From: Alphaproteobacteria bacterium
GTDB taxonomy: Bacteria; Pseudomonadota; Alphaproteobacteria; SPJN01
Direction of reading: 5' to 3'
NCBI GenBank assembly: GCA_965227065.1
Contig: CBDDFN010000009.1
Coordinates: 151,337 to 215,336, forward strand
DNA: 64,000 nt
In this document: positions 9,573 through 63,208 of the stretch, piece after piece
How the letters are laid out: every line of letters starts with the position of its first letter
Position numbering within the stretch: the first letter of the stretch is position 1
Made by a program: the position numbers and the translations under genes
The notes under the pieces: generated by a model
Database searches by the model: none
Seen by the model: only the letters and a program-made list of their open reading frames with translations
What the model was told of the DNA's origin: nothing

Positions 9573-10054
9573 TTCGCCCATGATACTGTTTCTCCATCTT
9601 TGGGTTTGCGCAAAACCAGTCCCTGGCCGGTAAAGTGCCACACACGCTGCCCCTTTTCATTAAAGGCTTCATTGAGGCTGCGTGACAGGCCCATGGTGGG
9701 GCGGGATTTAAGCTCAATCCAGGGTTCCAGTGTGGAACGGTACGAGATCGTTTCCCCGGCATAGACCGGCGCGTCGGCCACCCAGTCGAAAAAGCCCGGC
9801 GAGGGGCCGTACGCCTCATTGATGCCCTCACGCGCATCGAGCAGCAGCCGCATCCACAGATTGGCGACATGAAGCGGCGAAGCGGTCAGCGCGCCGAACG
9901 GCCCCGACTTGGCCGCCTCGTCGTCGAGATAAAGCGGGCAGGGATCATAGGCCGCCGCATAGGCCTTGATCGCCTCGGCGGTGAAAGTGTAGCTGCCGAT
10001 TTCAGCGACGTCGCCGACCGGCATGTCTTCAAGATATTGCGTGAAGCGCTTCAT
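9569..10054 (-). CDS. MaoC-like (hotdog fold) dehydratase
   Basis: Hotdog/MaoC N-terminal-type sequence. Start at MKRFTQYL (ATG 10054), coupled by ATGA to the upstream hotdog gene stop. Confidence 0.7.
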   Translation of the reverse strand: MKRFTQYLEDMPVGDVAEIGSYTFTAEAIKAYAAAYDPCPLYLDDEAAKSGPFGALTASPLHVANLWMRLLLDAREGINEAYGPSPGFFDWVADAPVYAGETISYRSTLEPWIELKSRPTMGLSRSLNEAFNEKGQRVWHFTGQGLVLRKPKDGETVSWAK

Positions 10055-25193: not shown

Positions 25194-26420
25194 GTGATGG
25201 CCCGGCCCCAAACGGTCGTGATCATTTCCGATCACGCCTTTATCAATGGCGGGCAGGCCAAGGTCGCACTCGACTCGGCGCTGGGTCTCAAGGCGCGGGG
25301 ATTTGACGTTCGGCTGTTTGCCAGTGTCGGCCCTGCCGATCCCCGGCTTGAGGCTGCCGGTATTCCCGTCACGCTGCTGGATGGTCATGACATTCTGGGC
25401 GATCCCAATCGGGCCCGCGCCATCCTCAATGGTGTGTGGAACCGTGCGGCTGGACAAGCGCTGACCGACATGCTGCGCGGGCTTGATCCCGCCTGCACGC
25501 TTGTCCACACCCATGGCTGGGCGAAAGCCTTGTCAGGCGCGGTGGCGCCCGCGATCCGGGGATCGGCTTTGCCCCATGTCTACACCATGCATGAATATGC
25601 GTTGGCCTGTCCCAATTCAGCCTTTCTCGATCACAAGCGGGTCGAGATTTGTACGCGTAAGCCGCTGGGCTTTGACTGTCTGACCACTCAGTGTGACAGC
25701 CGGTCGTACGCCCACAAGGGCTGGCGGGTGATGCGCCAGCTTGGACTGCGCGCGGGCGGCTGGCCCAAACATCTCACCCATCTGATTTATTTGAGTGAGA
25801 CCGAGCTTGAAGCCATGCGGCCCAATCTGCCCGAAAGCGCGCAATTGTGGCATGTCACCAATCCGGTTGATGCGGTGGCCGATGCGCAAGTCGGGGTCGC
25901 GGACAATGATGTGTTCTTGTTTGTCGGCCGCCTGTCGCCCGAAAAAGGCCCCGTCCTGTTTGCCGAAGCCGCCAAAGAGGCGGGCGTGCGCGCCGTCTTT
26001 GTCGGTTCAGGCGATGAGGAAGAGGCGGTCCGCGCCGCCAATCCGGCCGCCGAGTTGACCGGCTGGGTGACACCCGATCAGGTCCAGGACTGGATCGGCA
26101 AGGCGCGTGCGCTGGTCTTCCCGTCGGTCTGGTATGAGACCCATGGCCTGGTTGCTTATGAGGCGCAAGCCCGCGGTGTTCCGGTGATTGTCGGGGACCG
26201 CTGCGCCGCACGCGAGGCAATTGCGGATGGTGAAACCGGACTGTGGTTTCCCATGGCGTCCAAGGACGGGCTTGTGGCGGCGCTGCAACAGATGGAGGAC
26301 GGCGCGGTGGCCGCGCAGATGGGCCAGACCGGATTTGACCGGTATTGGAAAAATCCGCTGACTATGGACAGTCATCTTGACCAGCTTGAAGCGGTCTATG
26401 ATGCGGTGATGGCGGGTTAG
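25194..26420 (+). CDS. glycosyltransferase family 4 (GT1-type) protein
   Basis: GT-B fold with a C-terminal Glycos_transf_1 region (FVGRLSPEKG...E(x7)E motif YETHGLVAYEAQARGVPVI). Confidence 0.75.
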   Translation: MMARPQTVVIISDHAFINGGQAKVALDSALGLKARGFDVRLFASVGPADPRLEAAGIPVTLLDGHDILGDPNRARAILNGVWNRAAGQALTDMLRGLDPACTLVHTHGWAKALSGAVAPAIRGSALPHVYTMHEYALACPNSAFLDHKRVEICTRKPLGFDCLTTQCDSRSYAHKGWRVMRQLGLRAGGWPKHLTHLIYLSETELEAMRPNLPESAQLWHVTNPVDAVADAQVGVADNDVFLFVGRLSPEKGPVLFAEAAKEAGVRAVFVGSGDEEEAVRAANPAAELTGWVTPDQVQDWIGKARALVFPSVWYETHGLVAYEAQARGVPVIVGDRCAAREAIADGETGLWFPMASKDGLVAALQQMEDGAVAAQMGQTGFDRYWKNPLTMDSHLDQLEAVYDAVMAG

Positions 26421-27121
26421 CCGTCCCAGCCCTTGCGGGCATCTGCATCCGAGCCGCGCGCCTCGACCCATTTTTCGCCGCCCGAACCGGTTTCCTTTTT
26501 CCAGAACGGGGCGTCGGTCTTCAGCACATCCATGACAAAGCGGGCGGCCTCAAACGCGGCATCCCGGTGCGCTGAAGAAGCGATCACCAGCACAATGGTT
26601 TCGGTGGGCCTCATCGGGCCGACACGGTGGGCAATGCGCAAGCCGGTGAGCGGCCAGCGCGCTTGCGCCTTGGAGGCAATGTCGGCCAGGGCCTTCTCCG
26701 TCATGCCGGGATAGTGCTCAAGCGTCAGCGTCTCCAGCGGGGCTTCAGCGGAGGAGCGGACGGTGCCTGTAAAGCTGACCACTGCGCCGGTCTCGGCATC
26801 ACGCGGAAACGCTTTGAGTTCGGCAGCCTCATCAATAGGTTCAGACCCCACGGTGACGGTGACATCCGATCCCCCGGTCATGGGCGGAAAAAAGGCAACC
26901 TCATCGCCGTCCTTGATGGGGTGATCAAGCGGGACGGCCTTCATATTGACCGCAGCCCGTATGACGCTGCGATCTTCAAAGGCGCGCGCATAGGCAGGCG
27001 ACAGGGTTTCAAGATGGGTGATCAGCGCCTCGACCGTCTCTGTTGCGGGCGGCAGGTCTTTTTGTTCTTCATCACACCCGATCTGCTCGCGCACCCAGGC
27101 AAAATAGACAAGGCTGATCAC
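26417..27121 (-). CDS. moaDE: molybdopterin synthase MoaD-MoaE translational fusion
   Basis: The N-terminal 84 aa is MoaD-like and ends in the Gly-Gly motif (...FFPPMTGG). It continues in-frame into a 150 aa MoaE-like domain with no intervening stop; the DNA is read directly. Confidence 0.75.
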   Translation of the reverse strand: MISLVYFAWVREQIGCDEEQKDLPPATETVEALITHLETLSPAYARAFEDRSVIRAAVNMKAVPLDHPIKDGDEVAFFPPMTGGSDVTVTVGSEPIDEAAELKAFPRDAETGAVVSFTGTVRSSAEAPLETLTLEHYPGMTEKALADIASKAQARWPLTGLRIAHRVGPMRPTETIVLVIASSAHRDAAFEAARFVMDVLKTDAPFWKKETGSGGEKWVEARGSDADARKGWDG

Positions 27122-36360: not shown

Positions 36361-37320
36361 ATGCTGATCAAGAACAAGCGCGCGTGGGAAATTCCCGAAT
36401 GCGAAGCCACCCCGGAACATATTTACTGGTCGCGCCGCGACTGGATTAAGGCTGCCGGGGTTGCGGTTGCAGGTTCCATCCTGCCGCCGGGCATTGCGCT
36501 GGCGAGCGAAGACACCAGCGCCGGGCTTTATCCCGCCCCGCGCAATGAGGCCTACACGCTGGACCGTGACCTCACCCGCGAAGAAATCGCGACCAGCTAC
36601 AATAATTTCTACGAATTCGGCTCGCACAAGCAGATTGCAGAACGTGCGCAAGACCTCAAAACCCGGCCCTGGACGGTCAAGATTGACGGCATGGTCGACA
36701 ATGCGATGGAACTCGACATTGATGATCTGTTGAAAAAGGTCACGCTGGAAGAACGGCTCTACCGCTTCCGCTGTGTCGAAGCCTGGGCAATGGCGGTGCC
36801 GTGGACGGGCTTTCCGATGGCTGATCTCGTCAAAATGGCGGGTCCGCAATCGGGCGCAAAATATGTCCGCATGGAAACGTTCCTGGACCCCAAAGTGGCG
36901 CGTGGTCAGAAACAGCGTTGGTACCCCTGGCCCTATGTGGAGGCGCTGACGCTGGAAGAGGCAACCAATGAGATGGCTTTCATGGTGACGGGGCTCTACG
37001 GCAAGCCCTTGCCCAAGCAGAACGGCGCCCCCTTGCGGCTGGCTGTGCCGTGGAAGTTTGGCTTCAAAAATATCAAATCGATCGTTCGGTTCACCTTTAC
37101 CGATGAGAAGCCAACAAGTTTCTGGGAAGACATTCAGCCCAGCGAATATGGCTTCTGGGCGAATGTGAACCCCGAAGTCCCCCATCCTCGCTGGAGCCAG
37201 GCGTCAGAGCAACTGATCGGCACGATCAAGCGGCGCAAGACCTTGTTGTTCAACGGCTATGAAGAGCAGGTCGCCCATCTCTACAAGGATATGAAGCAAG
37301 GCGATTATCTCTACCGCTAG
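36361..37320 (+). CDS. msrP: protein-methionine-sulfoxide reductase catalytic subunit MsrP (YedY family)
   Basis: Tat signal (SRRDWIKAAGVAVAGSILPPG) and Mo-cofactor oxidoreductase domain. No msrQ-like gene follows. Confidence 0.85.
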   Translation: MLIKNKRAWEIPECEATPEHIYWSRRDWIKAAGVAVAGSILPPGIALASEDTSAGLYPAPRNEAYTLDRDLTREEIATSYNNFYEFGSHKQIAERAQDLKTRPWTVKIDGMVDNAMELDIDDLLKKVTLEERLYRFRCVEAWAMAVPWTGFPMADLVKMAGPQSGAKYVRMETFLDPKVARGQKQRWYPWPYVEALTLEEATNEMAFMVTGLYGKPLPKQNGAPLRLAVPWKFGFKNIKSIVRFTFTDEKPTSFWEDIQPSEYGFWANVNPEVPHPRWSQASEQLIGTIKRRKTLLFNGYEEQVAHLYKDMKQGDYLYR

Positions 37321-37377
37321 GCCACCGGGTTCGGTAGGCTCCCTCCCGACAGTCCTGTTTTTTCGGGGGAGGCTCTC

Positions 37378-38553
37378 ATGTGGAAATGGATCGCCATTGG
37401 TCTGGGCGTGCTGATCGTTGTGGTCGGCATTGGTCTGGTTGTGCTGCAAGAAGTGGGCATGGCCATGCTTTATAAGCCTGATACCGAATTTGCCGAGCAT
37501 GAGCCCTGGCCTGCGCCGGACTATTCAGACCCCAAAAGCTGGTCGGCGCTGCCTGGCCGCGATGACGCTGCCGATGCGCTGCCCGAAGGGGTGGATGCGG
37601 TTCCCGAAGCCCAGCGGCTGGCAGATGTGTTTTATGTACATCCCACGGTGAATTTCAGCACCGACCGCTGGAACGGCAAGGTGGGTGACCCCGAGCTTGA
37701 TATGCTGGTGGATCAGTTGCCGGTCAAATCGCAAGCCAGCGCGTTCAATGGTTGTTGCCGGGTGTCGGCGCCGCGCTACCGTCAGGCAACCTTTTACACA
37801 TTTATGGAAGACAAGCCCTCCAACATCGCCGCGATTGATCTGGCCTATCAGGATGTGGCGCGCGCCTTTGATTATTTTGTCGGCACGCTGGAGCCGGGCC
37901 GCCCGATCATTCTGGCGAGCCACAGCCAGGGCAGCCATCATCTGGCGCGTCTGTTGGCCGAACGTGTGTCGGGAACCGCGATCGCGGAACGTGTTGTGGC
38001 CGTCTATATGATCGGTATCGGCTTTCCAGTTGAGGCCGTTGCAAAGAATGCCCCTGATTTCCCGGTCTGCCAAAGCGCTGATGACACAGGCTGCATCATC
38101 CATTGGGACACCTATTGGGAGAACGGCAATCCAGACATCAATTATCGCGGATTGCCCAAATGGATCGATGGAAAATATCAGCACCCCGAAGATGCCACCG
38201 GCGTGTGTGTCAATCCGCTGACCTGGACCAGCGAGAAGGGCGAGAAGTCCGATCATGCCGGGGCCGGCCGGGTTGATCCGGGCGCGTTTGCCGATGTGTT
38301 CACGGGCGGATCGGCCCCGGAGGCGGGGTCTGAAAGCCATTTGGGGCCCATCATTCCCAATCTGACCGAGGCATGGTGTGCGCGCGGCTTTTTGTGGGTG
38401 CCCGACAATGATCATGAGGCGTTTCAGACGCTGCGTATCCCCGGCGGCAGTTTGCACCTGCTTGATTACGCCTTGTTCTGGAAAGACATTCACGACAATG
38501 CCAGCGTAAGGGTGAATGCCTTCATCGCTGCGCAGGCGAACGCATTGAGGTAA
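37378..38553 (+). CDS. DUF3089-like alpha/beta hydrolase, membrane-anchored (paralog 1)
   Basis: N-terminal TM anchor, VFYVHPT motif, CC pair in NGCCRVSAPRYRQ, and GxSxG nucleophile elbow ILASHSQGS. Six conserved Cys shared with the two downstream paralogs. Confidence 0.7.
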   Translation: MWKWIAIGLGVLIVVVGIGLVVLQEVGMAMLYKPDTEFAEHEPWPAPDYSDPKSWSALPGRDDAADALPEGVDAVPEAQRLADVFYVHPTVNFSTDRWNGKVGDPELDMLVDQLPVKSQASAFNGCCRVSAPRYRQATFYTFMEDKPSNIAAIDLAYQDVARAFDYFVGTLEPGRPIILASHSQGSHHLARLLAERVSGTAIAERVVAVYMIGIGFPVEAVAKNAPDFPVCQSADDTGCIIHWDTYWENGNPDINYRGLPKWIDGKYQHPEDATGVCVNPLTWTSEKGEKSDHAGAGRVDPGAFADVFTGGSAPEAGSESHLGPIIPNLTEAWCARGFLWVPDNDHEAFQTLRIPGGSLHLLDYALFWKDIHDNASVRVNAFIAAQANALR

Positions 38554-38560
38554 GTGTGTC

Positions 38561-39715
38561 ATGGCCCGATGGCTGGTTGCGGGGTTCATTCTCCTGCTTG
38601 TTCTGTTTGGTGTTGCCATCGCCTATCAGGATGTCCTGATTTATTATTTCGGCACGAAACCGCCGCAAGCGTTTAACGACACCGACCAGCCCTTGCCGCC
38701 CGATTATCGGCAGACGGGAAGCTGGGCGGCGCGGCCGGGCATGGACGGCTTGAACTACGCTGAAATGCTGCCGGCGGGGGTTGATCACGTTCCAATGCGG
38801 GACCGGGCGGCCGATGTGTTTTATGTGCATGGCACTTCGGTTTTCCTGCCTGTGTGGAACGCCACGCTGGATCACACCGACACCAATTGGCGAACCGACA
38901 GTTTCGGTCTGGTTCAGCAAGCCAACGTGTTCAACGCCTGTTGCCGGGTGTTTGCGCCGCGCTACCGGCAGTCGGGCCTGTTCAGCTTTGTTGACGGCGG
39001 TGAAGATGGCCGCCGGGCCGTCTCTCTCGCCTATGACGATGTGCGCGACGCTTTCCTGCATTACCTGTCGGTGGTCGATGAGGACCGGCCATTTATTTTG
39101 GCGGGACACAGCCAGGGCGCGGCTCATATTCTGCGCCTGCTTTCGGAGCTGGTGGAAGGCACGCCGCTCGAAAAACGGCTGGTGGCCGTTTATGCCATTG
39201 GCTATTGGCTGCCCGACGATTTTTATCCCCGCCTGTCCAGGACACCGGTGTGTGAAAGCCCTGCCGATACGGGCTGTGTGGTGAGCTGGGATACGTTCAT
39301 GGAAGGGGGCGAGCGAAGCATCGCCACACCGCGAATGGGGGTGTTCGCAGACGGGGCATACGGGCCGAAGGCTGAAGGCAGGGGGCTGTGCATCAATCCT
39401 GTCAGCTGGATGCGCAATGGCGAGACATCAAAGGAGGAGCATCAGGGCGGCTTGCCAATGGGCTTTATGACCGCAGATGCCAATCCTGATCCGGCCCCGT
39501 ACCGGGCGTTTGAGCTGGTGCCGGTTTTGCCTGCCCATACTTATGCAAGGTGCGCCGACGACGGGGGGCTGATTGTCTCACCCGATATTGACCCGCATTT
39601 CCGGGTTGCCGAGATGCCCGGCAAGTCGCTGCACCCGATGGATTTCAGCCTGTTCTGGGCCGATATCCGGGCCAATGCGGTGCTGCGCAGCCGCACCTTT
39701 GTGCAAGGAGAGTAG
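38561..39715 (+). CDS. DUF3089-like alpha/beta hydrolase, membrane-anchored (paralog 2)
   Basis: Same architecture (VFYVHGT, NACCRVFAPRYRQ, ILAGHSQGA, CESPADTGC). About 40% identity to its neighbours. 7 nt gap from paralog 1. Confidence 0.7.
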   Translation: MARWLVAGFILLLVLFGVAIAYQDVLIYYFGTKPPQAFNDTDQPLPPDYRQTGSWAARPGMDGLNYAEMLPAGVDHVPMRDRAADVFYVHGTSVFLPVWNATLDHTDTNWRTDSFGLVQQANVFNACCRVFAPRYRQSGLFSFVDGGEDGRRAVSLAYDDVRDAFLHYLSVVDEDRPFILAGHSQGAAHILRLLSELVEGTPLEKRLVAVYAIGYWLPDDFYPRLSRTPVCESPADTGCVVSWDTFMEGGERSIATPRMGVFADGAYGPKAEGRGLCINPVSWMRNGETSKEEHQGGLPMGFMTADANPDPAPYRAFELVPVLPAHTYARCADDGGLIVSPDIDPHFRVAEMPGKSLHPMDFSLFWADIRANAVLRSRTFVQGE

Positions 39716-39720
39716 CCTTC

Positions 39721-40875
39721 ATGTTTCGCGTGTCCGCCCGTACTTTGCTGCGTTTGTTTGGCCTTGCTGTTGTGCTGGGTCTTGTCGCGCTTTATGCGGC
39801 CTGGACGTTCCGCTTTGAGCTGCTTGAGCAACGTGTGGCGGTGACCAAGCCATTTCGTGCCGAAGAAGCACCTGCCGCGCCTGATTATGATGATCCACGC
39901 TATTGGTCGGCCTGGCCGGGCAAGCCTGGTTTTGCAGCGCTTGTGCCGCGTGACTTGACCCCGCTGCCTGAAGCGGCGCGCAAGGCTGATGTGTTTTATG
40001 TTCATGCCACAACGCTGGACCGGGCGAGCGCATGGAATGCAAGCCTTGATGATGCAGTAATCAATGAGGTGACCGATCAGCTTTACACCGCGCGCCATGC
40101 CAGCGTGTTCAATTCCTGCTGCCGTATCTTTGTGCCGCGCTGGCGTCAGGCAACCTTGTTTGCCTCGCGCCGTCATACCGCCGACACGGCGGCGGCGATG
40201 GCGCTGGCTTATCGGGATGTCGAAGCGGCCTTTGAGCGGTTCTTGGAAGAGATTGGCGACCGGCCGTTCATTCTGGCAAGCCACAGCCAGGGCAGCCTTC
40301 ACATGGAACGGCTGCTTGCCACCAAGGTTGCGGGTAGCCCGCTCGAACAAAGGCTGATCGTGGCTTACATGATCGGCTATTGGACGCCCGAACGCATCGC
40401 CGCAAAAGCGTTCCCCAGCCTGCCGGTCTGTGAAAGCGCGGCGCAAACCATGTGCGTGGTCAGTTGGGACAGCTATGGCGAGGGCCGAACGCCTTTTGAG
40501 AAGGTTGATGTGTTCGGCCATTGGGATGGCGAACGCTACGCGCCCGGAGGCGAGGGCAAATCCATTTGCGTCAATCCGCTGAGTTGGGAAAAAGATGGCG
40601 GCCCGGCGGATGCCGCCTCCAACAAGGGTGCGCTTGCGGTGGATTATGATCTTGCCCGTACCATTGGGCCGGGCGTGACGTCACTTCCCCCGCTGCAAAA
40701 GGGTCTGGTTTCAGCGCAATGCCGCGCGGGCCGCCTTTACGTGCCGGTACAGGATGGCCTGTTCGCCTACAAGGTGACGATGCCGAGCTATCACCGCTTC
40801 GACTGGGGCTTTTTCTATGGTGACCTGTGGGCCAATGCAGCACTGCGCACCGATGCGTGGCTGGCAGCCCGCTAG
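39721..40875 (+). CDS. DUF3089-like alpha/beta hydrolase, membrane-anchored (paralog 3)
   Basis: Same architecture (VFYVHAT, NSCCRIFVPRWRQ, ILASHSQGS, CESAAQTMC). 5 nt gap from paralog 2. The stop overlaps the convergent TBDR stop. Confidence 0.7.
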   Translation: MFRVSARTLLRLFGLAVVLGLVALYAAWTFRFELLEQRVAVTKPFRAEEAPAAPDYDDPRYWSAWPGKPGFAALVPRDLTPLPEAARKADVFYVHATTLDRASAWNASLDDAVINEVTDQLYTARHASVFNSCCRIFVPRWRQATLFASRRHTADTAAAMALAYRDVEAAFERFLEEIGDRPFILASHSQGSLHMERLLATKVAGSPLEQRLIVAYMIGYWTPERIAAKAFPSLPVCESAAQTMCVVSWDSYGEGRTPFEKVDVFGHWDGERYAPGGEGKSICVNPLSWEKDGGPADAASNKGALAVDYDLARTIGPGVTSLPPLQKGLVSAQCRAGRLYVPVQDGLFAYKVTMPSYHRFDWGFFYGDLWANAALRTDAWLAAR

Positions 40876-43292
40876 AAGGTCACATTCGCCTGAACGATAA
40901 GTGTGCGGGGATCGCCGGCACGCGCCCAGTGGCTGCCATTGAACAATGGCACATCAAAGCCGCGGATTTTGATGGTTTTGTCGAAAGCGTTTTTGAGAAA
41001 GACGCTGGCGCTCCACCAGCCGTCCAGAGATTTGAGAGAGGCCCGGAAGTTGACCCGGTAATAGGCATCCTGGCTGTCAAACTCGTCGAGATCGGCTTGC
41101 AGATATTGCTTGCCCTGGAAATACAGATCGCCGCCGACAATTAACTCAATGGGCCAATCAAACAGCAGGGTGGTGTAGTCGACAATGACGGTCAGCTGAT
41201 AGCGCGGTGCGCCCAGCCGCTCGCCGGTCAGATCACAAAAACCGCTTTGCCCGGCCTGACAGGGGCCGTTTTCATATTCGGTATAGTAAGCATCAAGGAA
41301 GGAGGCCGAGCCGCCCAAGAAGAAGCCCCACGGCAGGACGGCGCCGCCTTCGATCTCAACCCCCTGGCTCACGCTGGCGGCGGCATTTTCAACAATCGGG
41401 GCAAGCCCGTTGAAAATGAAAGTTTGCAGATCGGTGAATTCGGTACGGAACAGCCCGACATTGACCCGGCCCACGCCGTCTAGAAAATCAGCCTTGAACC
41501 CCAGTTCATATGTGTCCGATTGCTCGGGCTCAAACTCGATCTCTTCGGCCGTGAGCGCCTGCGTGTTAAAGCCGCCCGATTTGAAACCGCGCGCATAGGT
41601 GGCGTAGACATTGATATTGTCCGTGGCGCGCCAGATGACCGACAGCTTGGGTGAAAATTCAGACTCGCGCCGGAACAGGTCGTCTTCATTGATATTTTCA
41701 GCCCCCAGAATGGGCTGGATCAGCAAGCCTTCGCTAGGAATAGTGCCCAGTTCAAAGTTTTGCGCAAACTGGCTGCCTTCCTTGCGCTCCACCGAAATGC
41801 GCATTCCGGCGACGACCGAAATCCATGGCCGGATATGCCAGGTGAACTGGCCGAAGGCAGCGACGCTTTGCGTGTCCTGGACGAGCGTGCCGTCGCGCTT
41901 CTCAACCGGCGCGCCGATATTGGGCGTATCAAGAATGCCGAGCAGAAGCGGACCAACAAGCGGGATGGGGTTGAGTATGTCATCCAGAACAAGGCCCAAA
42001 GTGCCGCCCAGATTGTCGATCTTGCCGACACTGATATTGGTGTCGGCATCAAGGTGCGACCGGAACAGATAGACCCCGCCGATAAATTCGCCATCGCCCC
42101 AGCTTCCGAAATTGGTATCTCCCGCGACGCGCAGCTCCAGCGAGCTTTGGTCATAGAGCTGGAGCTCCTCAAGAAAGATCACCGGAACGGGAGAGAAATC
42201 GCCATCGACGAAATTGTCCCGGTCGAACTGTGAATGGTGGCCGATCAAATCAAAGCTGAGGTCAAACAGCTCAAACTTTGCCTTGGCAGTGAAGTCTTTG
42301 TTGATTTGAAGGCTTTTGGACTGTTGATCCTGGGAGCCTTGCCGGTCAAGCCGCGTTTCAAACTCAGGATCAAAAATCTCGGACAAGACACCCAGGCCGC
42401 TTCCCACCCGATCAATCTCAAAGCCCGCACCTTGCGGTGTGTCGTAACGGTTATAAACAGCCGTCAGCACCAGTTCAGCGGTGTCTGAAAATGTGAACTT
42501 GACCTTGCCGCGCACCAGATCCTGGGTGAACCGGCCATCATTCATGTCCAGAAACGAATTGTAGAAAAAACCTTCGCGTTCAGAATGGGTGGCAGCGATC
42601 CGCACTGAAACGAAATCCTCGATGATCGGGATATTGCCGACAATGGTGCCGGCAAGTTTTTGATAGGTGCCGATCTCGCCAGTCAGGCTGGCTTCATACT
42701 CTTCATGAGGGTCTTCGGTGCGAACGGTCAGCGCACCGGCAATCGTGTTCTTGCCAAACAAAGTGCCTTGAGGGCCGCGCAGAACCTCGATCTGTTTCAC
42801 GTCGAGAAAGGCCATAGAGAGATAGTGCAGCCGACCATAATAGACATCATCAATAATCAGTCCGACGGACTGTTCAAAGCCTTCCAGCTGGCCAGAGCCG
42901 AGCCCGCGAATGGCGACCTCGTTAAACACGCCGCCTGAGACCACGGTGAGATTGGGGGTGTATTTCGACAGATCGGAAAAGTCTTGAATGTTCTGGTCTT
43001 TGAGCGCTTCACCCGAAACGGCGGACACCGAAATCGGCACCTCGCGAATGTCTTGCTCTTTCTTCTGGGCGGTGACGATGATTTCGTCGAGGCCCCGGCG
43101 CCTGGCCCGGTCATCGCCTTCAGCAAGGGTTTGGACGGACTTCGATTCGGGGTCGAGTGTGCTGCCAAAAGTTGAGCCTTGCGCGTCCTGAGCCCTGACA
43201 GGCAAGGCTGTGGCGGTGACGGTGAGGGCCGCTGCGGTCAGCACCAACGCTGCGCGGCGGTGAGAGGACAATGGAGGAAGTCTGAGACGCAT
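40872..43292 (-). CDS. TonB-dependent receptor (paralog 1)
   Basis: Signal peptide, plug-domain motif DEIIVTAQKKEQDIREVPISVSAVSGE, and a beta-barrel ending in aromatic F (ANVTF). Confidence 0.9.
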   Translation of the reverse strand: MRLRLPPLSSHRRAALVLTAAALTVTATALPVRAQDAQGSTFGSTLDPESKSVQTLAEGDDRARRRGLDEIIVTAQKKEQDIREVPISVSAVSGEALKDQNIQDFSDLSKYTPNLTVVSGGVFNEVAIRGLGSGQLEGFEQSVGLIIDDVYYGRLHYLSMAFLDVKQIEVLRGPQGTLFGKNTIAGALTVRTEDPHEEYEASLTGEIGTYQKLAGTIVGNIPIIEDFVSVRIAATHSEREGFFYNSFLDMNDGRFTQDLVRGKVKFTFSDTAELVLTAVYNRYDTPQGAGFEIDRVGSGLGVLSEIFDPEFETRLDRQGSQDQQSKSLQINKDFTAKAKFELFDLSFDLIGHHSQFDRDNFVDGDFSPVPVIFLEELQLYDQSSLELRVAGDTNFGSWGDGEFIGGVYLFRSHLDADTNISVGKIDNLGGTLGLVLDDILNPIPLVGPLLLGILDTPNIGAPVEKRDGTLVQDTQSVAAFGQFTWHIRPWISVVAGMRISVERKEGSQFAQNFELGTIPSEGLLIQPILGAENINEDDLFRRESEFSPKLSVIWRATDNINVYATYARGFKSGGFNTQALTAEEIEFEPEQSDTYELGFKADFLDGVGRVNVGLFRTEFTDLQTFIFNGLAPIVENAAASVSQGVEIEGGAVLPWGFFLGGSASFLDAYYTEYENGPCQAGQSGFCDLTGERLGAPRYQLTVIVDYTTLLFDWPIELIVGGDLYFQGKQYLQADLDEFDSQDAYYRVNFRASLKSLDGWWSASVFLKNAFDKTIKIRGFDVPLFNGSHWARAGDPRTLIVQANVTF

Positions 43293-43327
43293 ACCGAATT
43301 TCCTCGCTCAACGAAGGGCTCACCCTG

Positions 43328-45760
43328 CTAGAAGCTGGCTGTGAGTTGAATGGAGTATGTTCGCGGATCATTGGTCCGCGCCCAATGCGACCCAGTGAAC
43401 AGGGCAATGTCAAATGAGCGCGTGATTGTGGTCTTGTCGGTGAGGTTGCGCACGAACAGATTGGCACTCCACCGCCCGTCAATATCCTTCAAAGCCGCCC
43501 GCAGATTGAAAATCATATAGGCGTCCTGCTTGTCGGCGTCGTCGAGATCTGATTGCAGGAACTGCGTGCTCTGATAGTAAAGGTCACCGCCCACCACCAG
43601 CTCGACCGGCCAGTTAAACAGCTGGGTCGTGTAATCGGTGATCACCGTCAGCTGATAGCGCGGTGCGCCCAGCCGTTCATCGGACAAATCGCAAAACCCG
43701 TTCTGGCCCGCTTTGCAGGGGCCGTTCACATATTCGGTGTAAAACGCATCGAGAACCGAAAAGGACCCGCCCAGGAAAAATCCAAGCGGCAAGACCGCAC
43801 CGCCTTCAAGTTCGATCCCCTGGCTGACGCTGGCCGCGGCATTGTCGACGACGGGAGCAAGGCCGTTAAAAATGAACGTCTGGAGATTTTTGAATTCGGT
43901 GCGGAACAGACCCAGATTGACCCGGCCGACGCCATCGAGAAACTCGGCCTTGAGGCCAAGCTCATAGGTGTCGGATTCCTCGGGCTCAAACTCAATTTCC
44001 CCGGGATTAAGGGCCTGGGTGTTAAAGCCGCCGGCTTTGAAGCCGCGAGCATAGGTGGCGTAAATATTGATGTCGTCGGTCGCGCGCCAGATGACGGAAA
44101 CTTTTGGCGACAACTCGCTTTCTTCGCGCTTGAGGCCCTGCACATTGTAGTTGCCCGCACTCAGCACCGGAAACAACACAAGCCCGGGGCTGGGGATCTG
44201 GCCCAGTTCAAAATTCTGTGCTGTGAGTGAACCTTCCTTGCGCTCAAATGAGATGCGCAAGCCCGCAACCAGCGAAATCCAGGGCCGGATATGCCAGGTA
44301 AATTGCCCGAACGCGGCAATGCTTTGCGTGTCTTGCAGCAATTGGGTGTCACGGGTTTCAAGCGTTGCACCAAGGCCCGGCGTATTGAGCGAGGCCTGCA
44401 GCAGGGCGCCGACAACCGGTGTATTGACCAGAAGGTTGGGCAGCAAGTCGGTGAGCGTCACGCCCAGATTGTCGATTTTGGCGAGCTGGATGTGCTGAAA
44501 CGCGTCGAGGTGAGAATCAAAAAGATAAAGCCCGCCGATAAACTCGCCGTCGCCCCAATCGCCGAAACTGGTGTCACCGGCAACGCGCAGCTCAATCGTG
44601 GTTTGGTCATATTCATCAAATTGATCAAGCTGGATGATCGGAACGGGCGAGAAATCCGCATCAAGAATATTGTCGCGCTCATAAATCGAATGATTGGCAA
44701 CCAGTGTGAAATCGAGCCCGAACAGTTCGGTGCGCAGGCGGGCAGAGAAATCGGTGTTGACCTGTTCGGTAAAGCCGCGCTGATCGAACGAGCCTTGCCG
44801 GTCGACCTGAAACTCGACATCGGGGTCAAACAGTTCCGACAGCACGCCCAGGCCGGTCCCGACCGCGCTGAGCTCAATGCCCGCGCCTTGCGGAACCACA
44901 TGTTTGTTGTGGGTGGCGGACACAACAAGATCGGTCGTGTCGGTCATCTCAAATGCGATTTTGCCGCGCACCAAATCCTGTTTGACCTGGCCGTCATCCT
45001 CGTCGAGATAGGTGTTGTAGACGAAGCCCGCGCGTTCGGTGTGCATCCCCGCAAAGCGGACAGCAATGCGGTCATCAATAATCGGAATGTTGACCGCGCC
45101 CTGGATGGCGCGCTTTTCATGGCTGCCCAACTCGCCGGTTGCGGTGACTTCCCAATCATAGACCGGGTCCTTGGTGCGCACCGTCAGCGCACCGGCAATA
45201 GTGTTCTTGCCAAACAGCGTGCCTTGCGGGCCGCGCAGAACCTCGACTTGCTGCACATCAAGAAAGGCCATGGTGAGGTAATGCACCCGGCCATAATAAA
45301 CATCGTCAATGATCAACCCGACCGATTGTTCAAACCCTTCCATCAGCCCCGAACCCAGGCCGCGAATGGCGACTTCATTGAACGGGCCCGATGACAAAAC
45401 GCTCAGATTGGGTGTGTATTTCGACAGGTCCGAAAAGTCCTGAATGTTCTGGTCTTTGAGCGCTTCGCCCGATATGGCCGAAACCGAGATCGGCACTTCG
45501 CGGATGTCCTGCTCTTTCTTCTGGGCGGTGACGATGATTTCATCAAGTCCGCGGCGCTTGGCCCGGCCGGCTTCCTGGGCCAGGGCCTGATTGGCAGGGG
45601 TGTCTTCTTCAATGGCAGAGGCGCCGAACATGGAGGTTGAGGGAGGCGTTGTCTCGTCCCCAGCCCCCTGCGCCGCAGCAGAGCCGTGAGACAGCGATGC
45701 AGCCACAATGAAGATGCCGGCTGATTGGCGCAGACGATCTCTTGATGGGCAATAGCGCAT
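43328..45760 (-). CDS. TonB-dependent receptor (paralog 2)
   Basis: Plug motif identical to paralog 1, with a C-terminal LTASF. 35 nt gap from paralog 1. Confidence 0.9.
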   Translation of the reverse strand: MRYCPSRDRLRQSAGIFIVAASLSHGSAAAQGAGDETTPPSTSMFGASAIEEDTPANQALAQEAGRAKRRGLDEIIVTAQKKEQDIREVPISVSAISGEALKDQNIQDFSDLSKYTPNLSVLSSGPFNEVAIRGLGSGLMEGFEQSVGLIIDDVYYGRVHYLTMAFLDVQQVEVLRGPQGTLFGKNTIAGALTVRTKDPVYDWEVTATGELGSHEKRAIQGAVNIPIIDDRIAVRFAGMHTERAGFVYNTYLDEDDGQVKQDLVRGKIAFEMTDTTDLVVSATHNKHVVPQGAGIELSAVGTGLGVLSELFDPDVEFQVDRQGSFDQRGFTEQVNTDFSARLRTELFGLDFTLVANHSIYERDNILDADFSPVPIIQLDQFDEYDQTTIELRVAGDTSFGDWGDGEFIGGLYLFDSHLDAFQHIQLAKIDNLGVTLTDLLPNLLVNTPVVGALLQASLNTPGLGATLETRDTQLLQDTQSIAAFGQFTWHIRPWISLVAGLRISFERKEGSLTAQNFELGQIPSPGLVLFPVLSAGNYNVQGLKREESELSPKVSVIWRATDDINIYATYARGFKAGGFNTQALNPGEIEFEPEESDTYELGLKAEFLDGVGRVNLGLFRTEFKNLQTFIFNGLAPVVDNAAASVSQGIELEGGAVLPLGFFLGGSFSVLDAFYTEYVNGPCKAGQNGFCDLSDERLGAPRYQLTVITDYTTQLFNWPVELVVGGDLYYQSTQFLQSDLDDADKQDAYMIFNLRAALKDIDGRWSANLFVRNLTDKTTITRSFDIALFTGSHWARTNDPRTYSIQLTASF

Positions 45761-45810
45761 TTAAACCACTCCGTTATTGCCGGGTTGATCCGTATGCCGG
45801 TCTGGAAAGG

Positions 45811-48303
45811 CTAGAATGTGGCCCGAAGCTGAACGGCGAAGGTTCTGGGATCGTTGGTTGTCACCCAGTGAGACCCGGTGAAGAAGGCGACGTCGGAGGA
45901 CCGTGTCTTGATGGTGCGGTCCATGACGTTGCGGACAAACAGCGAGACGTTCCACCAGCCATCAATACTGCGCAGTGACGCGCGCAGATTGACAAGATAA
46001 TAAGCATCTTGCGCATCGAACGGATCGCGGTCGGATTCAAAAATCTGCCGGGTCTGGAAATAAAGGTCTCCGCCAATCACCATTTCGATCGGCCAGTTAA
46101 ACAGGCCCGTCGTGTAGTCGGTGATGAAGGTGAACTGATTGCGCGGGTTGCCGCGCTTCTTGCCGGTCAGGTCGCAAAACCCGTCCTGTCCTGCAATACA
46201 CGGACCGTTTTCATAGCTCGTATAGAAGGCATCAAGGAAGGAGTAATTGCCGCCAATGAAGAAGCCCCAGGGCAGCACCGCGCCGCCTTCGATTTCAAGT
46301 CCCTGGCTGACAGATTCAGCAGCGTTGCGCACAATCGGTGCCAGGCCATTAAACACGAAGGTCTGAAGGTTCTTGAACTTGGTACGGAACAGGCCGAAAT
46401 TCACCCGGCCGACACCGTCAAGAAACTCGGCCTTCAAACCCAGCTCAATGGTTTTGGATTCTTCGGGCTCAAAGGCAATATCGGTTAGCGCAGCAGATGT
46501 GGATTGGGTGTTGTATCCACCGCCTTTAAAGCCGATCGCGTAGGTTGCATAGACATTGATCTCGTCAGTGGCGCGCCAGATGACCGAGAATTTGGGCGAG
46601 AAATCACTTTCCCGGCGGAACAGCTGATTGTCGCCCGTATAGTCGAAATTGTCGGCGTTCAGAACCGGCGCAAGGATGAGGCCAGGGCTTGGCACTGCGC
46701 CGAATTCATAGTTCTGGGCGAACAGATCACCGGTTTTGGTTTCAACCGCATAGCGCATGCCGACCAGCAGCGAAATCCACGGCTTGATATGCCAGGTGAC
46801 CTGGCCAAAGGCCGCGACGCTTTTGGTTTCTTGAAGCAGGCTTGTTTCGCGGGTCTCGAACACAAATCCGGCATTGGGCGTGTTGAGCAGCGTATTGAAG
46901 ATCAAGCCCAGAAGCGGATTTTGGCCGGTAATATTGTCGAGCGGTGTGCCGATCAGGCGGCCCAGATTGTCGACCTGGAATATTTGAATGTTCTGGAAGG
47001 CGTCCAGTTCGCTGCGGAACAGATAGGCGCCGCCGACATATTCAATCTCGCCCCAATCGCCAAGGAATGCATCGCCATTGACCCGGATTTCCAGTGTGGT
47101 CTGCTCATATTCATCAAGCTGGTCGAGCTGGACGAGGGGCAGTGGCGAGAAGTCGGCATCAATGCGGTTGTCGCGATCATAAATCGAATGCGCGGCAATG
47201 ACGGCAAAGGTCTGGTTGAACAACTCAAAATTGGCGCGGCCCGAAAAATCGGTCGTCGTCAGGTCGGTCATCGCCATTTCGTTCATCGAACCCTGGCGAT
47301 TGATGTCGGCTTCAAACTCATCGTCATAAAGCGGAGCGGCGACCTGCATGCCACCATCGGCCCGGCTGAGTTCGACACCGACCCCGTTGGGAACATCATA
47401 CTGGTTGTGAACCACCGTCAAAATCACGTCGGCGGTATCGGTAATGTCGAATTTCAGCTTGGCGCGGATCAGCTTTTGTTCGTTGGCACCGTCTTCGGCG
47501 TCAAAGAATGTGTTGGTGGCAAATCCGCCGCGTTCCGCCCAGCGGCCTGACACGCGCAGGGCCAGCCGGTCGTCAATGATGGGGACATTGATGGCGGCAT
47601 TGACGGAGCGGCGCTCAAAATCGCCAATCTCGCCGGTGACATCGACTTCCCATTCATAGCTGGGATTGGTGGTGTTGATGATCAGCGCCCCGGCAATCGT
47701 GTTCTTGCCAAACAGCGTGCCTTGCGGTCCGCGCAGAATTTCAACCTGTTTGACGTCCAAAAAGGCCTGGGTGAGGTAATGGACGCGGCCAGCATAAACA
47801 TCGTCGATGATCAGACCAACAGCCTGTTCAAAGCCTTCCATCTGGCCTGATCCCAGGCCGCGGATCGACACGCCATTGAACACGCCTGAGGCGTTGACCG
47901 ACAGGTTGGGGGTGTATTTGGACAGTTCGGTGAAATCCTGGATGTTCTGATCTTTCAGCGACTCGCCGGAAATGGCGGAGACGGAGATCGGGACTTCACG
48001 AATGTCCTGCTCGGTTTTCTGGGCGGTGACGATGATCTCATCAAGGCCACGCCGCTGCGCGCGCGGGGCGCCCTTGCTCATGGAGGCGGCAACATCGCCT
48101 TCAACATCGGCTGACCCGAATGTTGATTTTTGAGCCTCTTTGGTTTCACCAGTCTCGGCTGCGGGCTGGGAGGGGTCGATGGCGTCTTGCGCGGCGCTGG
48201 GCAGGGCGGTGCCTGATATCAGTAGTGACAGAGCCAGTCCGGCAACAGCGCTTTTTCGGATGCTGCCATTTTGCAGTGCAGCATTCGCTTCGTGATGCAT
48301 CAT
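45811..48303 (-). CDS. TonB-dependent receptor (paralog 3)
   Basis: Same plug motif (DEIIVTAQKTEQDIREVPISVSAISGE), with a C-terminal LRATF. 50 nt gap to paralog 2. An AT-rich promoter-like region lies upstream (48304-48510). Confidence 0.9.
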   Translation of the reverse strand: MMHHEANAALQNGSIRKSAVAGLALSLLISGTALPSAAQDAIDPSQPAAETGETKEAQKSTFGSADVEGDVAASMSKGAPRAQRRGLDEIIVTAQKTEQDIREVPISVSAISGESLKDQNIQDFTELSKYTPNLSVNASGVFNGVSIRGLGSGQMEGFEQAVGLIIDDVYAGRVHYLTQAFLDVKQVEILRGPQGTLFGKNTIAGALIINTTNPSYEWEVDVTGEIGDFERRSVNAAINVPIIDDRLALRVSGRWAERGGFATNTFFDAEDGANEQKLIRAKLKFDITDTADVILTVVHNQYDVPNGVGVELSRADGGMQVAAPLYDDEFEADINRQGSMNEMAMTDLTTTDFSGRANFELFNQTFAVIAAHSIYDRDNRIDADFSPLPLVQLDQLDEYEQTTLEIRVNGDAFLGDWGEIEYVGGAYLFRSELDAFQNIQIFQVDNLGRLIGTPLDNITGQNPLLGLIFNTLLNTPNAGFVFETRETSLLQETKSVAAFGQVTWHIKPWISLLVGMRYAVETKTGDLFAQNYEFGAVPSPGLILAPVLNADNFDYTGDNQLFRRESDFSPKFSVIWRATDEINVYATYAIGFKGGGYNTQSTSAALTDIAFEPEESKTIELGLKAEFLDGVGRVNFGLFRTKFKNLQTFVFNGLAPIVRNAAESVSQGLEIEGGAVLPWGFFIGGNYSFLDAFYTSYENGPCIAGQDGFCDLTGKKRGNPRNQFTFITDYTTGLFNWPIEMVIGGDLYFQTRQIFESDRDPFDAQDAYYLVNLRASLRSIDGWWNVSLFVRNVMDRTIKTRSSDVAFFTGSHWVTTNDPRTFAVQLRATF

Positions 48304-48512
48304 CGTGTCAGCCCCTCAACCAGCATCGATACAGTCATGTCTATCTGAAAACGGACAGTACAGAGCCGGTTTTGGATGACGCAAGTGCACAATCAGCGCA
48401 GTTGGAGTAATCACTCCAAACTTGTCCCGTATTGGTCACACCCTTGTAAAATAAAAGATAATTAAAAAAATAAACTGACAAAAATATTGGTCAATCGTTA
48501 TAAAACCATGGC

Positions 48513-48544
48513 ACAAAAAAAAGCCGGATCCCGAAGGATCCGGC
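48513..48544 (-). terminator. rho-independent terminator (minus strand)
   Basis: On the minus strand a perfect 9 bp stem GCCGGATCC-TTCG-GGATCCGGC is followed by TTTTTTTT. Confidence 0.65.
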
Positions 48545-48916
48545 GAGTTCAACAGGGAGGCTTCACGTCTGGAGAGACGTGAAAGGTCGGGTCCTAAATG
48601 GGGGGCAAGGACCCAACCAGCGTCGACCGGAGCCGACGCGGTACCATGGATCGCGTGGTGCGATGCAACATGGCACACTCTCTATCTACGCCTTATACAA
48701 AGGGGATGCAAGGGCTATTGTGCACTGCACACTTAATGGTCTCTTGAAGGAAAAGCCTGAAAAATCAGCTAATTGTTTGATTTTTCAGAACAAGTGTGGG
48801 GTCTTCCCTACAGGACTGTTCGCAAGTGCGACATTGGGGCACGTCGTTAGACATATTAAAGATAATTGTCTAATCGTCTCTCTATCGCCTTGAAAATAAA
48901 AGAGAATATTTTCAGA

Positions 48917-49893
48917 TTATTCCGCGGCCGCGCTAGACAGTTTGTCCAGCGGGTGCTCTGCAATAAATTTTTCCGCCTCAAGCGCCGCCATGCAGCCCAT
49001 GCCCGCGGCGGTCACCGCTTGGCGATAGACCTTGTCGGTCACGTCGCCGGCGGCAAAAACACCGGCAATATCGGTCGCGGTCGAATCAGGGGCCTTCTTG
49101 ATATAGCCGCTGTCATCCATGGAAACCGCACCTTTGAAGACCTCGGTCGCGGGCGCGTGGCCAATGGCGATGAACACGCCATCGGTTTTGATTTCGCTCG
49201 TCTCGCCGCTCTTGACATTTTTCAGGCGCACGCCGGTGACGCCAAGGGGATCTTCATCCCCCAAAATCTCGTCAAGCACCGAATCCCAGACAATTTCGAC
49301 CTTGTCATGGTTGAACAGCCGCTCTTGCAGGATGCGTTCGGCGCGGAATTCATCGCGCCGGTGAACCACCGTGACCTTGGAGGCAAAATTGGTCAGAAAC
49401 AGCGCTTCTTCAACCGCGGTGTTGCCGCCACCGACCACCACAACCTCTTTGCCGCGATAGAAAAAGCCGTCGCAGGTGGCGCAGGCCGACACGCCGAAGC
49501 CCTGGAACTTGTCTTCCGAGGGCAGCCCCAGCCAGCGGGCTTGAGCGCCGGTGGCGATGACAACGGTTTCGCCCCCAGTAAATATCGCCCGAATCACCCA
49601 CCGCCTTGAAGGGGCGCGAGGAGAAATCGACACTCATAATTGTGTCCTGGATAAGGGTGGTGCCGACATGCTCGGCCTGGGCCTGCATCTGTTCCATCAG
49701 CCAGGGGCCCTGGATCACATCGGCGAAGCCCGGATAGTTCTCAACATCGGTGGTGATGGTCAGTTGGCCGCCGGGTTGAATGCCGGCCACCATGATCGGA
49801 TTAAGCATGGCCCGCGCCGCATAGATCGCCGCTGTATAGCCGGCGGGGCCTGAACCAATGATCAAGACCTTGGTGCGGTGTTCGTTTGCCATG
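48917..49893 (-). pseudogene. trxB: thioredoxin-disulfide reductase with an apparent +1/-2 frameshift
   Basis: The N-terminal half ([27 protein letters not shown]...[11 protein letters not shown]) and the C-terminal half ([20 protein letters not shown]...CATCDGFFY...GHAPATEVF) are both TrxB-like but lie in different frames. They switch around 49585-49600 at ATATTTACTGGGGGCG. This is a real frameshift or a homopolymer sequencing error. Confidence 0.7.
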
Positions 49894-62231: not shown

Positions 62232-62305
62232 GGGGCCGTAGCTCAACTGGTTAGAGCCATCCGCTCATAACGGATTGGTTGCAGGTTCAAGTCCTGCCGG
62301 CCCTA
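62232..62305 (+). tRNA. tRNA-Met (anticodon CAU), elongator type, or possibly tRNA-Ile2 (lysidine)
   Basis: Manual cloverleaf: acceptor GGGGCCG/CGGCCCT, D-arm GCTC-AACTGGTTA-GAGC, anticodon arm ATCCG-CTCATAA-CGGAT, T-arm GCAGG-TTCAAGT-CCTGC, and discriminator A. CCA is not encoded. Confidence 0.8.
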
Positions 62306-63208
62306 CGCCTTCAAATGCTTCACCAGAAAATCCCGCGCCGCGGCGGAGCCCAACTCGAACTGGTTGGCATAGACTTCCATATGCCCGCCTTGCACCAACA
62401 ACAGCTCTTTGGGTTCAAGCGCGTGTTCGTAAGCCTCCAGCGCAATATCGGTGGGCGTGACAATGTCATGGCTGACCAAAATCATCAGCAGCGGCACCGG
62501 GCTGATCTGGTGGATATGCTGGGCGGGTTCATACTCGGCCATCATTTCCGAGGATTTGAGCGTCACCTGGTTGAGCCATTGCTCGGTCCCCAGCAGGCCC
62601 GATTCGCGAATGAAATCCCATTCCTCGGGTGAGGGCAGGGCGCATAGCGCACCGCGTTCGGCAAAGACATCGATCACGGCGGCTTCGCCACCCGCAAAGC
62701 GGGTTTCGCGGTCGCGGTCATACATATCCCGCAGCACTTCGATTTCTTCCTCGCGGAACACACGGTGCGTGTTTTTGTGGCCCGAAATGAACGGCACCTG
62801 GCTCACCACCGCCTTGATCCGTTTGTCGAGCCCGGCCACGGCGAGCACATGGCCGCCCGAATAGCTTGTCCCCCAAATGCCGATCCGCTCGCGGTCAATG
62901 TTGGGATGGGTGCGCGCAAAGGTGATCGCGTCGCGATAGCCCTGAACCTGCAACCAGGGATCGGATTCAAGGCGCGGGCTGCCGTCCGAGGCGCCGAAAT
63001 TGCGATGGTCATAAACCACGCAGGCCAGTCCCGCCGCGCAGAAAATCTCGGCATATTGATCGAGAAAGACCTCTTTCACGGCTGAAAAGCCGTGCGCCAT
63101 GACCACGGCGGGATGGGGGCCTTCACCCTCGGGCAGATAGAGCCAGCCGCGCAGCGTGACCCCGTCGGCGGTTTGAAATTCAATATCGGATCGCATGATC
63201 GCCCCCAT
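62303..63208 (-). CDS. alpha/beta hydrolase family protein
   Basis: Nucleophile elbow GIWGTSYSGG and HGFSAVKE region. 301 aa. The stop overlaps the tRNA 3' end by 3 nt. Confidence 0.75.
   Translation of the reverse strand: MGAIMRSDIEFQTADGVTLRGWLYLPEGEGPHPAVVMAHGFSAVKEVFLDQYAEIFCAAGLACVVYDHRNFGASDGSPRLESDPWLQVQGYRDAITFARTHPNIDRERIGIWGTSYSGGHVLAVAGLDKRIKAVVSQVPFISGHKNTHRVFREEEIEVLRDMYDRDRETRFAGGEAAVIDVFAERGALCALPSPEEWDFIRESGLLGTEQWLNQVTLKSSEMMAEYEPAQHIHQISPVPLLMILVSHDIVTPTDIALEAYEHALEPKELLLVQGGHMEVYANQFELGSAAARDFLVKHLKA

Follow-up and report, generated by a model that had tools for sequence, protein, structure and literature searches.

A 64,000-nucleotide stretch of an alphaproteobacterial genome (GenBank assembly GCA_965227065.1, contig CBDDFN010000009.1, positions 151,337 to 215,336; hereafter the window, numbered from its first letter) carries seven envelope genes between an aminotransferase gene and trxB: msrP, three genes for proteins of the DUF3089 family (D1 to D3), and three genes for TonB-dependent receptors (TBDRs; T1 to T3). 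With a probability of about 60%, we read them as two separately transcribed, neighboring envelope gene sets that lie in a slot of variable content between msrP and trxB, the region around it being otherwise conserved and of housekeeping type (uvrB, aminotransferase, trxB, lrp, greA, and carBA). The first set, msrP-D1-D2-D3, would supply an MsrP exported by twin-arginine translocation (Tat) and three PF11288/DUF3089 serine carboxylesterases, while the second, T3-T2-T1, would be a tandem TBDR array made within this lineage, with its own promoter and lying downstream of a terminator and small RNA associated with trxB. The predicted esterases most likely act in the periplasm on esters of short to medium chain length; the receptors would import scarce organic substrates. 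That the two sets adjoin tail to tail is most likely the outcome of genes gained and duplicated locally rather than the mark of a conserved functional module; a first-pass annotation of this DNA had seen in it a modular system of import and hydrolysis, an idea that our comparative survey does not support.

All seven genes lie where that annotation had placed them. On the + strand, msrP (36361 to 37320) is followed by D1 (37378 to 38553; 391 aa), D2 (38561 to 39715; 384 aa), and D3 (39721 to 40875; 384 aa). On the − strand, T3 (45811 to 48303; 830 aa) would be the first gene of the receptor operon, followed by T2 (43328 to 45760; 810 aa), with T1 (40872 to 43292; 806 aa) as the last; T1 and T3 are identical to the database proteins P0125 and P0128, respectively. 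D3 and T1 meet tail to tail, and their stop codons share the palindromic CTAG at 40872 to 40875.

Distribution and history of the two gene sets

The neighborhoods of the closest DUF3089 homologs were surveyed in 80 genome loci (1.36 Mb from 79 assemblies) with hidden Markov models (HMMs) built from the window paralogs. A TBDR gene lies within ~10 kb of the DUF3089 gene in 8 of the 80 loci, and the 11 TBDR open reading frames (ORFs) in the 1.36 Mb correspond to ~8 per Mb, an ordinary density for TBDR-rich proteobacteria. The TBDR is a direct, divergent neighbor in two loci (L037 and L064) and stands within two genes in four; in L003 and L004, both of them duplicate blocks of a single Hyphococcus genome, it is one gene away. 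In control loci, the TBDR HMM recovered 9/9 Pfam-confirmed TBDRs. A metagenome scan with the D2/D3 alignment, run in search of closer relatives of these two proteins, yielded just 13 distant loci (25 to 34% identity), none of which (0/13) contained a TBDR. By neighbor clustering, no family was common to all 80 loci. The neighbors that recur, none of them in more than 14/80 loci, are lineage specific (a short-chain dehydrogenase/reductase, an ABC-2 permease, and another alpha/beta hydrolase), and a second DUF3089 copy within 10 kb occurs in only two loci (L026 and L080). Other contexts of DUF3089 genes include creatininase and acetyl-CoA synthetase genes (L085 and L086) as well as genes for glycerol kinase and a DAO-family oxidoreductase with a DAO_C domain (L087), the latter probably a glycerol-3-phosphate dehydrogenase; no TBDR was found in L084 to L087 or in L104 to L107.

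The search was also run from the receptor side. The closest TBDRs outside the lineage (41 to 42% identity) are followed by a major facilitator superfamily (MFS) transporter gene and stand among PhyH, cytochrome P450, Rieske, and beta-lactamase-family genes, and no DUF3089 gene was found beside them. The partnership of DUF3089 proteins with TBDRs, which had been proposed to be fixed, thus fails to recur in the 80 genome and 13 metagenome loci, in both closest outgroup lineages, and around the outside TBDR relatives.

The best outside case of a TBDR-plus-esterase neighborhood comes from Hyphococcus luteus, which carries the same block twice in one genome (L003, 7152 to 19465; L004, 7130 to 19298), with genes for two beta-lactamase-family hydrolases, a DUF3089 protein, an MmgE/PrpD protein, two TBDRs, and an acyl-CoA ligase. 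Another locus (L088, 8599 to 13799 and 16395 to 22312) has the closest TBDR homolog between a beta-lactamase-family gene and an MFS transporter gene; the same locus also has a tandem TBDR pair, behind which lie genes for an Abhydrolase_3 esterase and a GH106 protein.

The history of the slot can be followed through a small number of relatives. In L082/L083, where D1 is 77% identical, msrP-D1-D2-D3 and three TBDR genes are present; L081, with a D1 82% identical, has msrP-D1-D2-D3 as well, but only two TBDR genes. The nearest DUF3089 relatives found outside this clade belong to two lineages with 48 to 49% identity to D1. One of them (L084, 8976 to 11841 in a 3.07-Mb contig; 49%) has msrP, DUF3089, and a gene for a haloacid dehalogenase (HAD)-family hydrolase, then trxB, and no TBDR. 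The other (L104 to L107; 48%) has DUF3089-HAD in all four loci, again with no TBDR. There, msrP precedes the pair in L104 (106 to 2949) and L105, in L106 and L107 the contig ends within the upstream gene, and trxB is seen in L104 only. In both lineages the DUF3089 stop codon overlaps the start of the HAD gene, and msrP-DUF3089-HAD in L084 and L104 is probably an operon with no msrQ at the locus. A D1-type DUF3089 gene directly downstream of msrP is accordingly found in L081, L082, L084, and L104; in every lineage examined, msrQ is absent at the locus and the DUF3089 gene stands downstream of msrP instead.

Neighbor-joining trees group D1 with the msrP-linked copies of L084 and with P0007, the protein encoded in L104 to L107. 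D2 and D3 form separate deep branches with orthologs only in the three close relatives (L081 and L082/L083), and D1, D2, and D3 are as distant from one another as from the rest of the family. When D3 was compared with 5.8 billion proteins, matches of 100, 85, and 79% identity were followed by matches of at most 45%. These data mark D1 as the predicted ancestral, msrP-linked copy and D2 and D3 as putatively old, divergent paralogs known only from a narrow lineage. The receptors present a different picture, with T1 to T3 forming a single lineage-specific clade, (T3,(T1,T2)), that has ~40% identity to all else. Because the TBDRs fall into one clade and D1, D2, and D3 into deep, separate branches, the receptors appear to have arisen by tandem duplication within the lineage, and the esterase copies to have separated much earlier. 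The trees thus contradict the receptor/hydrolase pairs suggested by the first-pass annotation, as does L081 with its three esterases and two receptors. The symmetry of three plus three would be coincidental, the number of receptors varying independently of the number of esterases.

Horizontal transfer was considered for the seven genes and left no clear compositional signal. Their G+C content at third codon positions (GC3) is 0.65 to 0.72, compared with 0.71 ± 0.03 in the flanks, a deviation that is weak at most and slightly to the low side.

Gene products and transcription units

The three DUF3089 proteins match PF11288 over nearly the whole profile, with 210.3 bits for D1, 199.4 for D2, and 194.5 for D3 (cutoff, 23.4 bits). 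Their pairwise identity of 36 to 39% agrees with the ~40% paralogy estimated earlier, and the VFYVH motif (as ADVFYVH), the N-x-CCR motif, and six positionally conserved cysteines reported then are found in all three. These invariant cysteines (C126, C127, C231, C239, C277, and C334 in D1 numbering, which is used throughout) each occur in 95% or more of the 123 family members compared and would therefore be a trait of this DUF3089 subfamily, not of this locus; they could form up to three disulfides, which probably stabilize the proteins. The G-H-S-Q-G elbow attributed to all three stood in part, since HSQG is common to them and the leading glycine is confined to D2; D1, D3, and the family consensus read SHSQG. 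S183, H360, D363, and D159 are invariant across the 123 homologs, and H182-S183-Q184-G185, H360, and D363 are invariant in 121 to 123 aligned homologs, including all three paralogs.

The AlphaFold2 (AF2) model of D1 has a predicted local distance difference test (pLDDT) score of 94.5. The DUF3089 proteins have the alpha/beta-hydrolase fold, with weak structural similarity only, to acetyl-xylan esterases and cutinases; a PDB sequence search returned no solved DUF3089 structure. In D1 to D3, an aspartate (D343/D345) stands 15 to 17 residues ahead of the catalytic-type histidine, and an acidic residue follows the preceding strand in 105/123 homologs, at a varying position. Catalysis is predicted to use Ser183 as the nucleophile, His360 as the base, and either D343/D345 or D363 as the acidic partner.

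The only strongly hydrophobic segment of each DUF3089 protein is at its N terminus (mean Kyte-Doolittle value over 19 residues, 2.2 to 3.1). From the positive N terminus, this segment, and the conserved cysteines, it is a sensible inference that the catalytic domain is extracytoplasmic, the segment, an anchor or a signal that is cleaved off, carrying the protein across the inner membrane. The signal-anchor helix described before is right as to the single hydrophobic helix of each protein, which may be of either kind; D2 has an A-I-A motif past the segment that could be a signal-peptidase site.

MsrP matches the NCBIfam MsrP equivalog (NF003767) with 432 bits (cutoff, 207) and bears the twin-arginine motif SRRDWIK, and its product is thereby predicted to be the catalytic subunit of a periplasmic, molybdenum-dependent methionine-sulfoxide reductase. 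Its neighbors are the aminotransferase gene and D1. A Pfam scan of 58 window ORFs gave no hit to Ferric_reduct, the domain of MsrQ, which bears out the earlier remark that msrP heads the hydrolase run with no adjacent msrQ. About 9 kb from msrP, a molybdoenzyme gene, an ORF at 26417 to 27121 (−) combines ThiS/MoaD and MoaE domains in one frame and may be a fused molybdopterin synthase, unless the ORF was called too long.

In agreement with the earlier description of three paralogous TBDRs with near-identical plugs and spacers of 35 to 50 nt, T1, T2, and T3 each match PF07715 (Plug; 61 to 65 bits) and PF00593 (TonB_dep_Rec_b-barrel; 138 to 149 bits), and their spacers are 35 and 50 nt. The pairwise identity is 59 to 66%; a second comparison put T2 at 67% identity to T1 and 61% to T3. 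All three have a hydrophobic leader ending in A-x-A-Q and, directly ahead of the plug, an invariant DEIIVTAQK, of which we take DEIIVTA to be the TonB box; the Pfam scan found no STN signaling domain in them. Recent gene conversion was considered as the cause of the near identity of the plugs and is ruled out by the divergence at four-fold degenerate sites, 34 to 58% even within the plug. Protein divergence is highest in alignment columns 241 to 480, the N-terminal half of the barrel, which fits a diversification of ligand recognition. None of the receptors can be assigned to a siderophore class, since they score 125 to 138 bits against TIGR01783 (siderophore receptor; cutoff, 223.5), every siderophore-receptor equivalog match stays below 10% of its own cutoff, and PDB matches span only the plug or the C-terminal barrel.

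Because the gaps between D1 and D2 and between D2 and D3 are 7 and 5 nt and the 57-nt spacer between msrP and D1 has no terminator, msrP-D1-D2-D3 is probably one operon with msrP at its head. A hairpin in the msrP-D1 spacer was evaluated as a terminator or structured element and rejected, as it lacks a T-run and its stability does not exceed that of shuffled sequence (z = 0.55).

The receptors probably have a promoter region of their own. An AT-rich segment with promoter and 5′ leader features (48304 to 48514, −) was delimited by a promoter scan and by alignment with L081 and L082, and it contains a promoter-like site (48494 to 48467, −) upstream of T3, just past a strong terminator (48544 to 48515); the earlier placement of the receptor promoter in this region was thus reasonable. 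Also upstream of T3, a block of ~30 nt, CCAACTGCGCTGATTGTGCACTTGCGTCAT (~48376 to 48407, −), is nearly invariant in L081 and L082, whose proteins are only 77 to 82% identical, and may be an operator or leader element. A core of this block, AGTGCACAAT, is repeated in inverted orientation 323 nt off, at 48717 to 48726, and is not enriched elsewhere in the window. The conserved core ATTGTGCACTTGCG was tried as a window-wide operator motif and dismissed, its match counts equaling the chance expectation.

The boundary between trxB and the receptor operon is formed by a two-hairpin element (48515 to 48589, −; the small RNA itself at 48517 to 48589) that comprises the strong intrinsic terminator and a single-stranded CCUCCCUGUUG stretch. 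It matches the Rhodobacter small RNA SorX (RF02784) with 39.4 bits, below the Rfam gathering score of 46.6, and we call it SorX-like. Similar elements are located 3′ of trxB in L081 (18591 to 18663) and L084 (11850 to 11926). Because the element is kept after trxB in L084, where there are no TBDRs, it appears to belong to trxB and not to the receptors. The trxB gene itself (48917 to 49893, −) is split over two frames, with a frameshift near 49573 to 49577; frame −2 matches residues 1 to 109, and frame −3 residues 107 to 324, of the TrxB of L081. At TACTGGGGGCGAAACC there is one G too many for the expected Y-W-G-E-T, and the frameshift is probably a homopolymer sequencing error rather than the mark of a pseudogene.

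The rest of the window (G+C content, ~59%) consists nearly entirely of alphaproteobacterial-type housekeeping sequence, including petABC, ychF, pth, rplY, prs, lgt, proC, dksA, a two-component pair, moaDE, pgsA, uvrC, folB, uvrB, the aminotransferase gene, trxB, lrp, greA, carBA, dnaG, and rpoD. Among these GC3-rich genes, an ORF at 7827 to 8579 (+; 250 aa) has a GC3 of 0.35, four transmembrane-like segments, and no Pfam hit, and falls within a stretch of low G+C content (8001 to 10000; 0.52). Near the far end of the window, at 62303 to 63208 (−), lies a gene for an alpha/beta hydrolase with AXE1, Peptidase_S15, and Abhydrolase_1 matches, unrelated to DUF3089; it shares 4 nt with the 3′ end of a tRNA-Met gene (62232 to 62306).

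Alternative readings of the locus

It is possible, if unlikely, that the two sets jointly form a lineage-limited route of import and hydrolysis, in which the receptors would bring in related ester compounds (acylated or lactone-type organics, polyester oligomers), the tethered periplasmic DUF3089 esterases would cleave them, and generic transporters would take up the products. Several observations favor such a route and weigh against two sets that are merely adjacent. Within the lineage, D2, D3, and the TBDRs go together, and L084 and L104 have none of them, so co-acquisition or cooperation is possible; the three closest relatives keep the arrangement. Packing is so tight that D3 and T1 overlap in their stop codons. 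Both kinds of product act in the cell envelope, D1 to D3 being predicted to be extracytoplasmic, and neither the receptor operon nor the cluster as a whole has a dedicated inner-membrane transporter. Looser neighborhoods of TBDRs with esterases or other serine hydrolases recur in the Hyphococcus luteus block and in L088, and the DUF3089 esterase MGS0012 takes a broad range of esters (PMC5341072). These points are offset by the survey, in which TBDRs were not enriched near DUF3089 in 93 other loci, and by the convergent orientation, which implies separate transcripts. One-to-one pairing is contradicted by L081, and the two duplications differ greatly in age. Moreover, with 77 to 98% protein identity among the relatives, shared ancestry alone explains the conservation, and the co-occurrence counts as one evolutionary event. 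We are similarly doubtful of the proposal that D2, D3, and the receptor array originated or were acquired jointly, as a dedicated ester route of three diversified receptors and three diversified, membrane-tethered periplasmic DUF3089 esterases, resembling the carbohydrate utilization loci containing TBDRs (CUT loci) but having no transporter or regulator of its own. Were it true, it would provide the first physiological role for DUF3089 enzymes; a coupling to TonB-dependent import would hint at the natural role of these esterases, and oligotrophic bacteria would then have, among their TBDR-based nutrient loci, a variant for scavenging esters.

Two further accounts divide the locus differently. 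D1 could serve with MsrP, and ancestrally also with the HAD phosphatase, in a module that repairs or turns over oxidized or acylated envelope parts, with D2 and D3 added later and the TBDRs unrelated. The order of msrP and a D1-type DUF3089 gene, retained at 48 to 49% identity in two more lineages with a DUF3089 stop codon overlapping the HAD start, would suit such a module, as would the terminator-free msrP-D1 spacer, the absence of msrQ from the locus in all lineages examined, and the oxidative-stress genes close by (trxB and the SorX-like RNA). We nevertheless find it decidedly improbable, since msrP is near DUF3089 in 0/80 of the wider loci, so that the pair may be plain local synteny, other members of the D1 clade adjoin creatininase and acetyl-CoA synthetase genes, and the literature showed no biochemical link between MsrP and an esterase. 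Siderophore piracy, with receptors importing ferric siderophores that have an ester backbone and periplasmic esterases freeing the iron, is brought to mind by the layout of a TBDR with a periplasmic serine esterase, which matches PfeA/PfeE (PMC8001512), and by the best partial NCBIfam and PDB matches of T1 to T3, which are to siderophore receptors. It is nonetheless highly improbable, given that these matches fall far under the equivalog cutoffs or are limited to one part of the receptor, as described above, that the cluster is free of genes for siderophore biosynthesis, ABC transport, periplasmic binding proteins, reductases, and recognizable iron regulators, that the closest TBDR relatives stand among MFS, P450, PhyH, and Rieske genes, and that DUF3089 differs from the Fes/IroE/PfeE family.

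We therefore prefer two separately transcribed, adjacent envelope gene sets. So understood, the msrP-trxB slot is a case study of envelope genes gathering at a variable site within conserved housekeeping sequence, and of how a striking 3+3 symmetry can come from two unrelated duplication histories. Two minor leads stand apart from this: the conserved linkage of msrP and DUF3089 (with or without HAD) in the absence of msrQ, and the SorX-like RNA downstream of trxB.

Relation to known systems

MsrP of the window resembles its counterpart in the MsrPQ (YedYZ) periplasmic repair system in equivalog score and Tat signal and differs in its setting, as no msrQ adjoins it and none was found in the 64-kb window.

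IroN-IroE, like PfeA-PfeE of Pseudomonas aeruginosa, couples TonB-dependent import to a periplasmic serine esterase. The concept shared with our locus is import through a TBDR followed by the action of a periplasmic, possibly membrane-tethered, serine esterase; in the PfeA-PfeE pair, PfeE hydrolyzes enterobactin in the periplasm (PMC8001512). In contrast to both systems, the esterases here belong to another family, the receptors score below siderophore cutoffs, and the gene context is not related to iron.

CUT loci of Xanthomonas and Caulobacter combine a TBDR, a degradative enzyme, an inner-membrane transporter, and a regulator (Blanvillain et al. 2007; PMC1790865). Our locus is like them in that an aquatic proteobacterium rich in TBDRs has TBDR genes beside those for hydrolases that are secreted or periplasmic, and the closest relatives of T1 to T3 have an MFS transporter gene after the TBDR gene, as in sux-type CUT loci (PMC1790865). 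Unlike in CUT loci, no inner-membrane transporter or regulator is encoded between msrP and trxB, the hydrolases are not known carbohydrate-active enzymes, the gene sets are convergent, and the two are not associated in a conserved way. L084, which has no TBDR, also keeps the nearby lrp.

A further parallel is with characterized DUF3089 esterases, whose existence makes the first-pass statement that DUF3089 has no assigned function outdated. Est10 and MGS0012 are purified, characterized carboxylesterases (PMC4431682, PMC5341072). EstD2, Est5S, EstGK1, EstZ3, and EstWSD have been reported as earlier characterized members, and ESTHER groups them as lipolytic family XV; the authors of the Est10 study limited family XV proper to a rumen clade (Est10, Est5S, EstZ3, and EstGK1) and judged the other DUF3089 proteins too diverse (PMC4431682). 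MGS0012 is an efficient, broad-range carboxylesterase for C2 to C10 esters, and its triad, S193/D360/H375, was confirmed by mutagenesis (PMC5341072). The physiological substrates of DUF3089 esterases are apparently not known, the studies consulted characterizing them only as metagenome-derived or biotechnological enzymes. Unlike the known family esterases, D1 to D3 form three divergent tandem copies, known here from sequence, and D2 and D3 have no relative of more than 45% identity beyond this lineage. D1 to D3 have PF11288 and the HSQG elbow in common with Est10, EstD2, Est5S, EstGK1, EstZ3, EstWSD, MGS0012, and GEN0034, and they share an N-terminal secretion or anchor segment with the family XV esterases, in Est10 a predicted signal peptide. 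D343/D345 matches D360 of MGS0012 by its spacing of 15 to 17 residues before the histidine, at a position that varies across the family, and the Ser…His pair of D1 to D3 corresponds to the mutationally verified S193/H375 of MGS0012.

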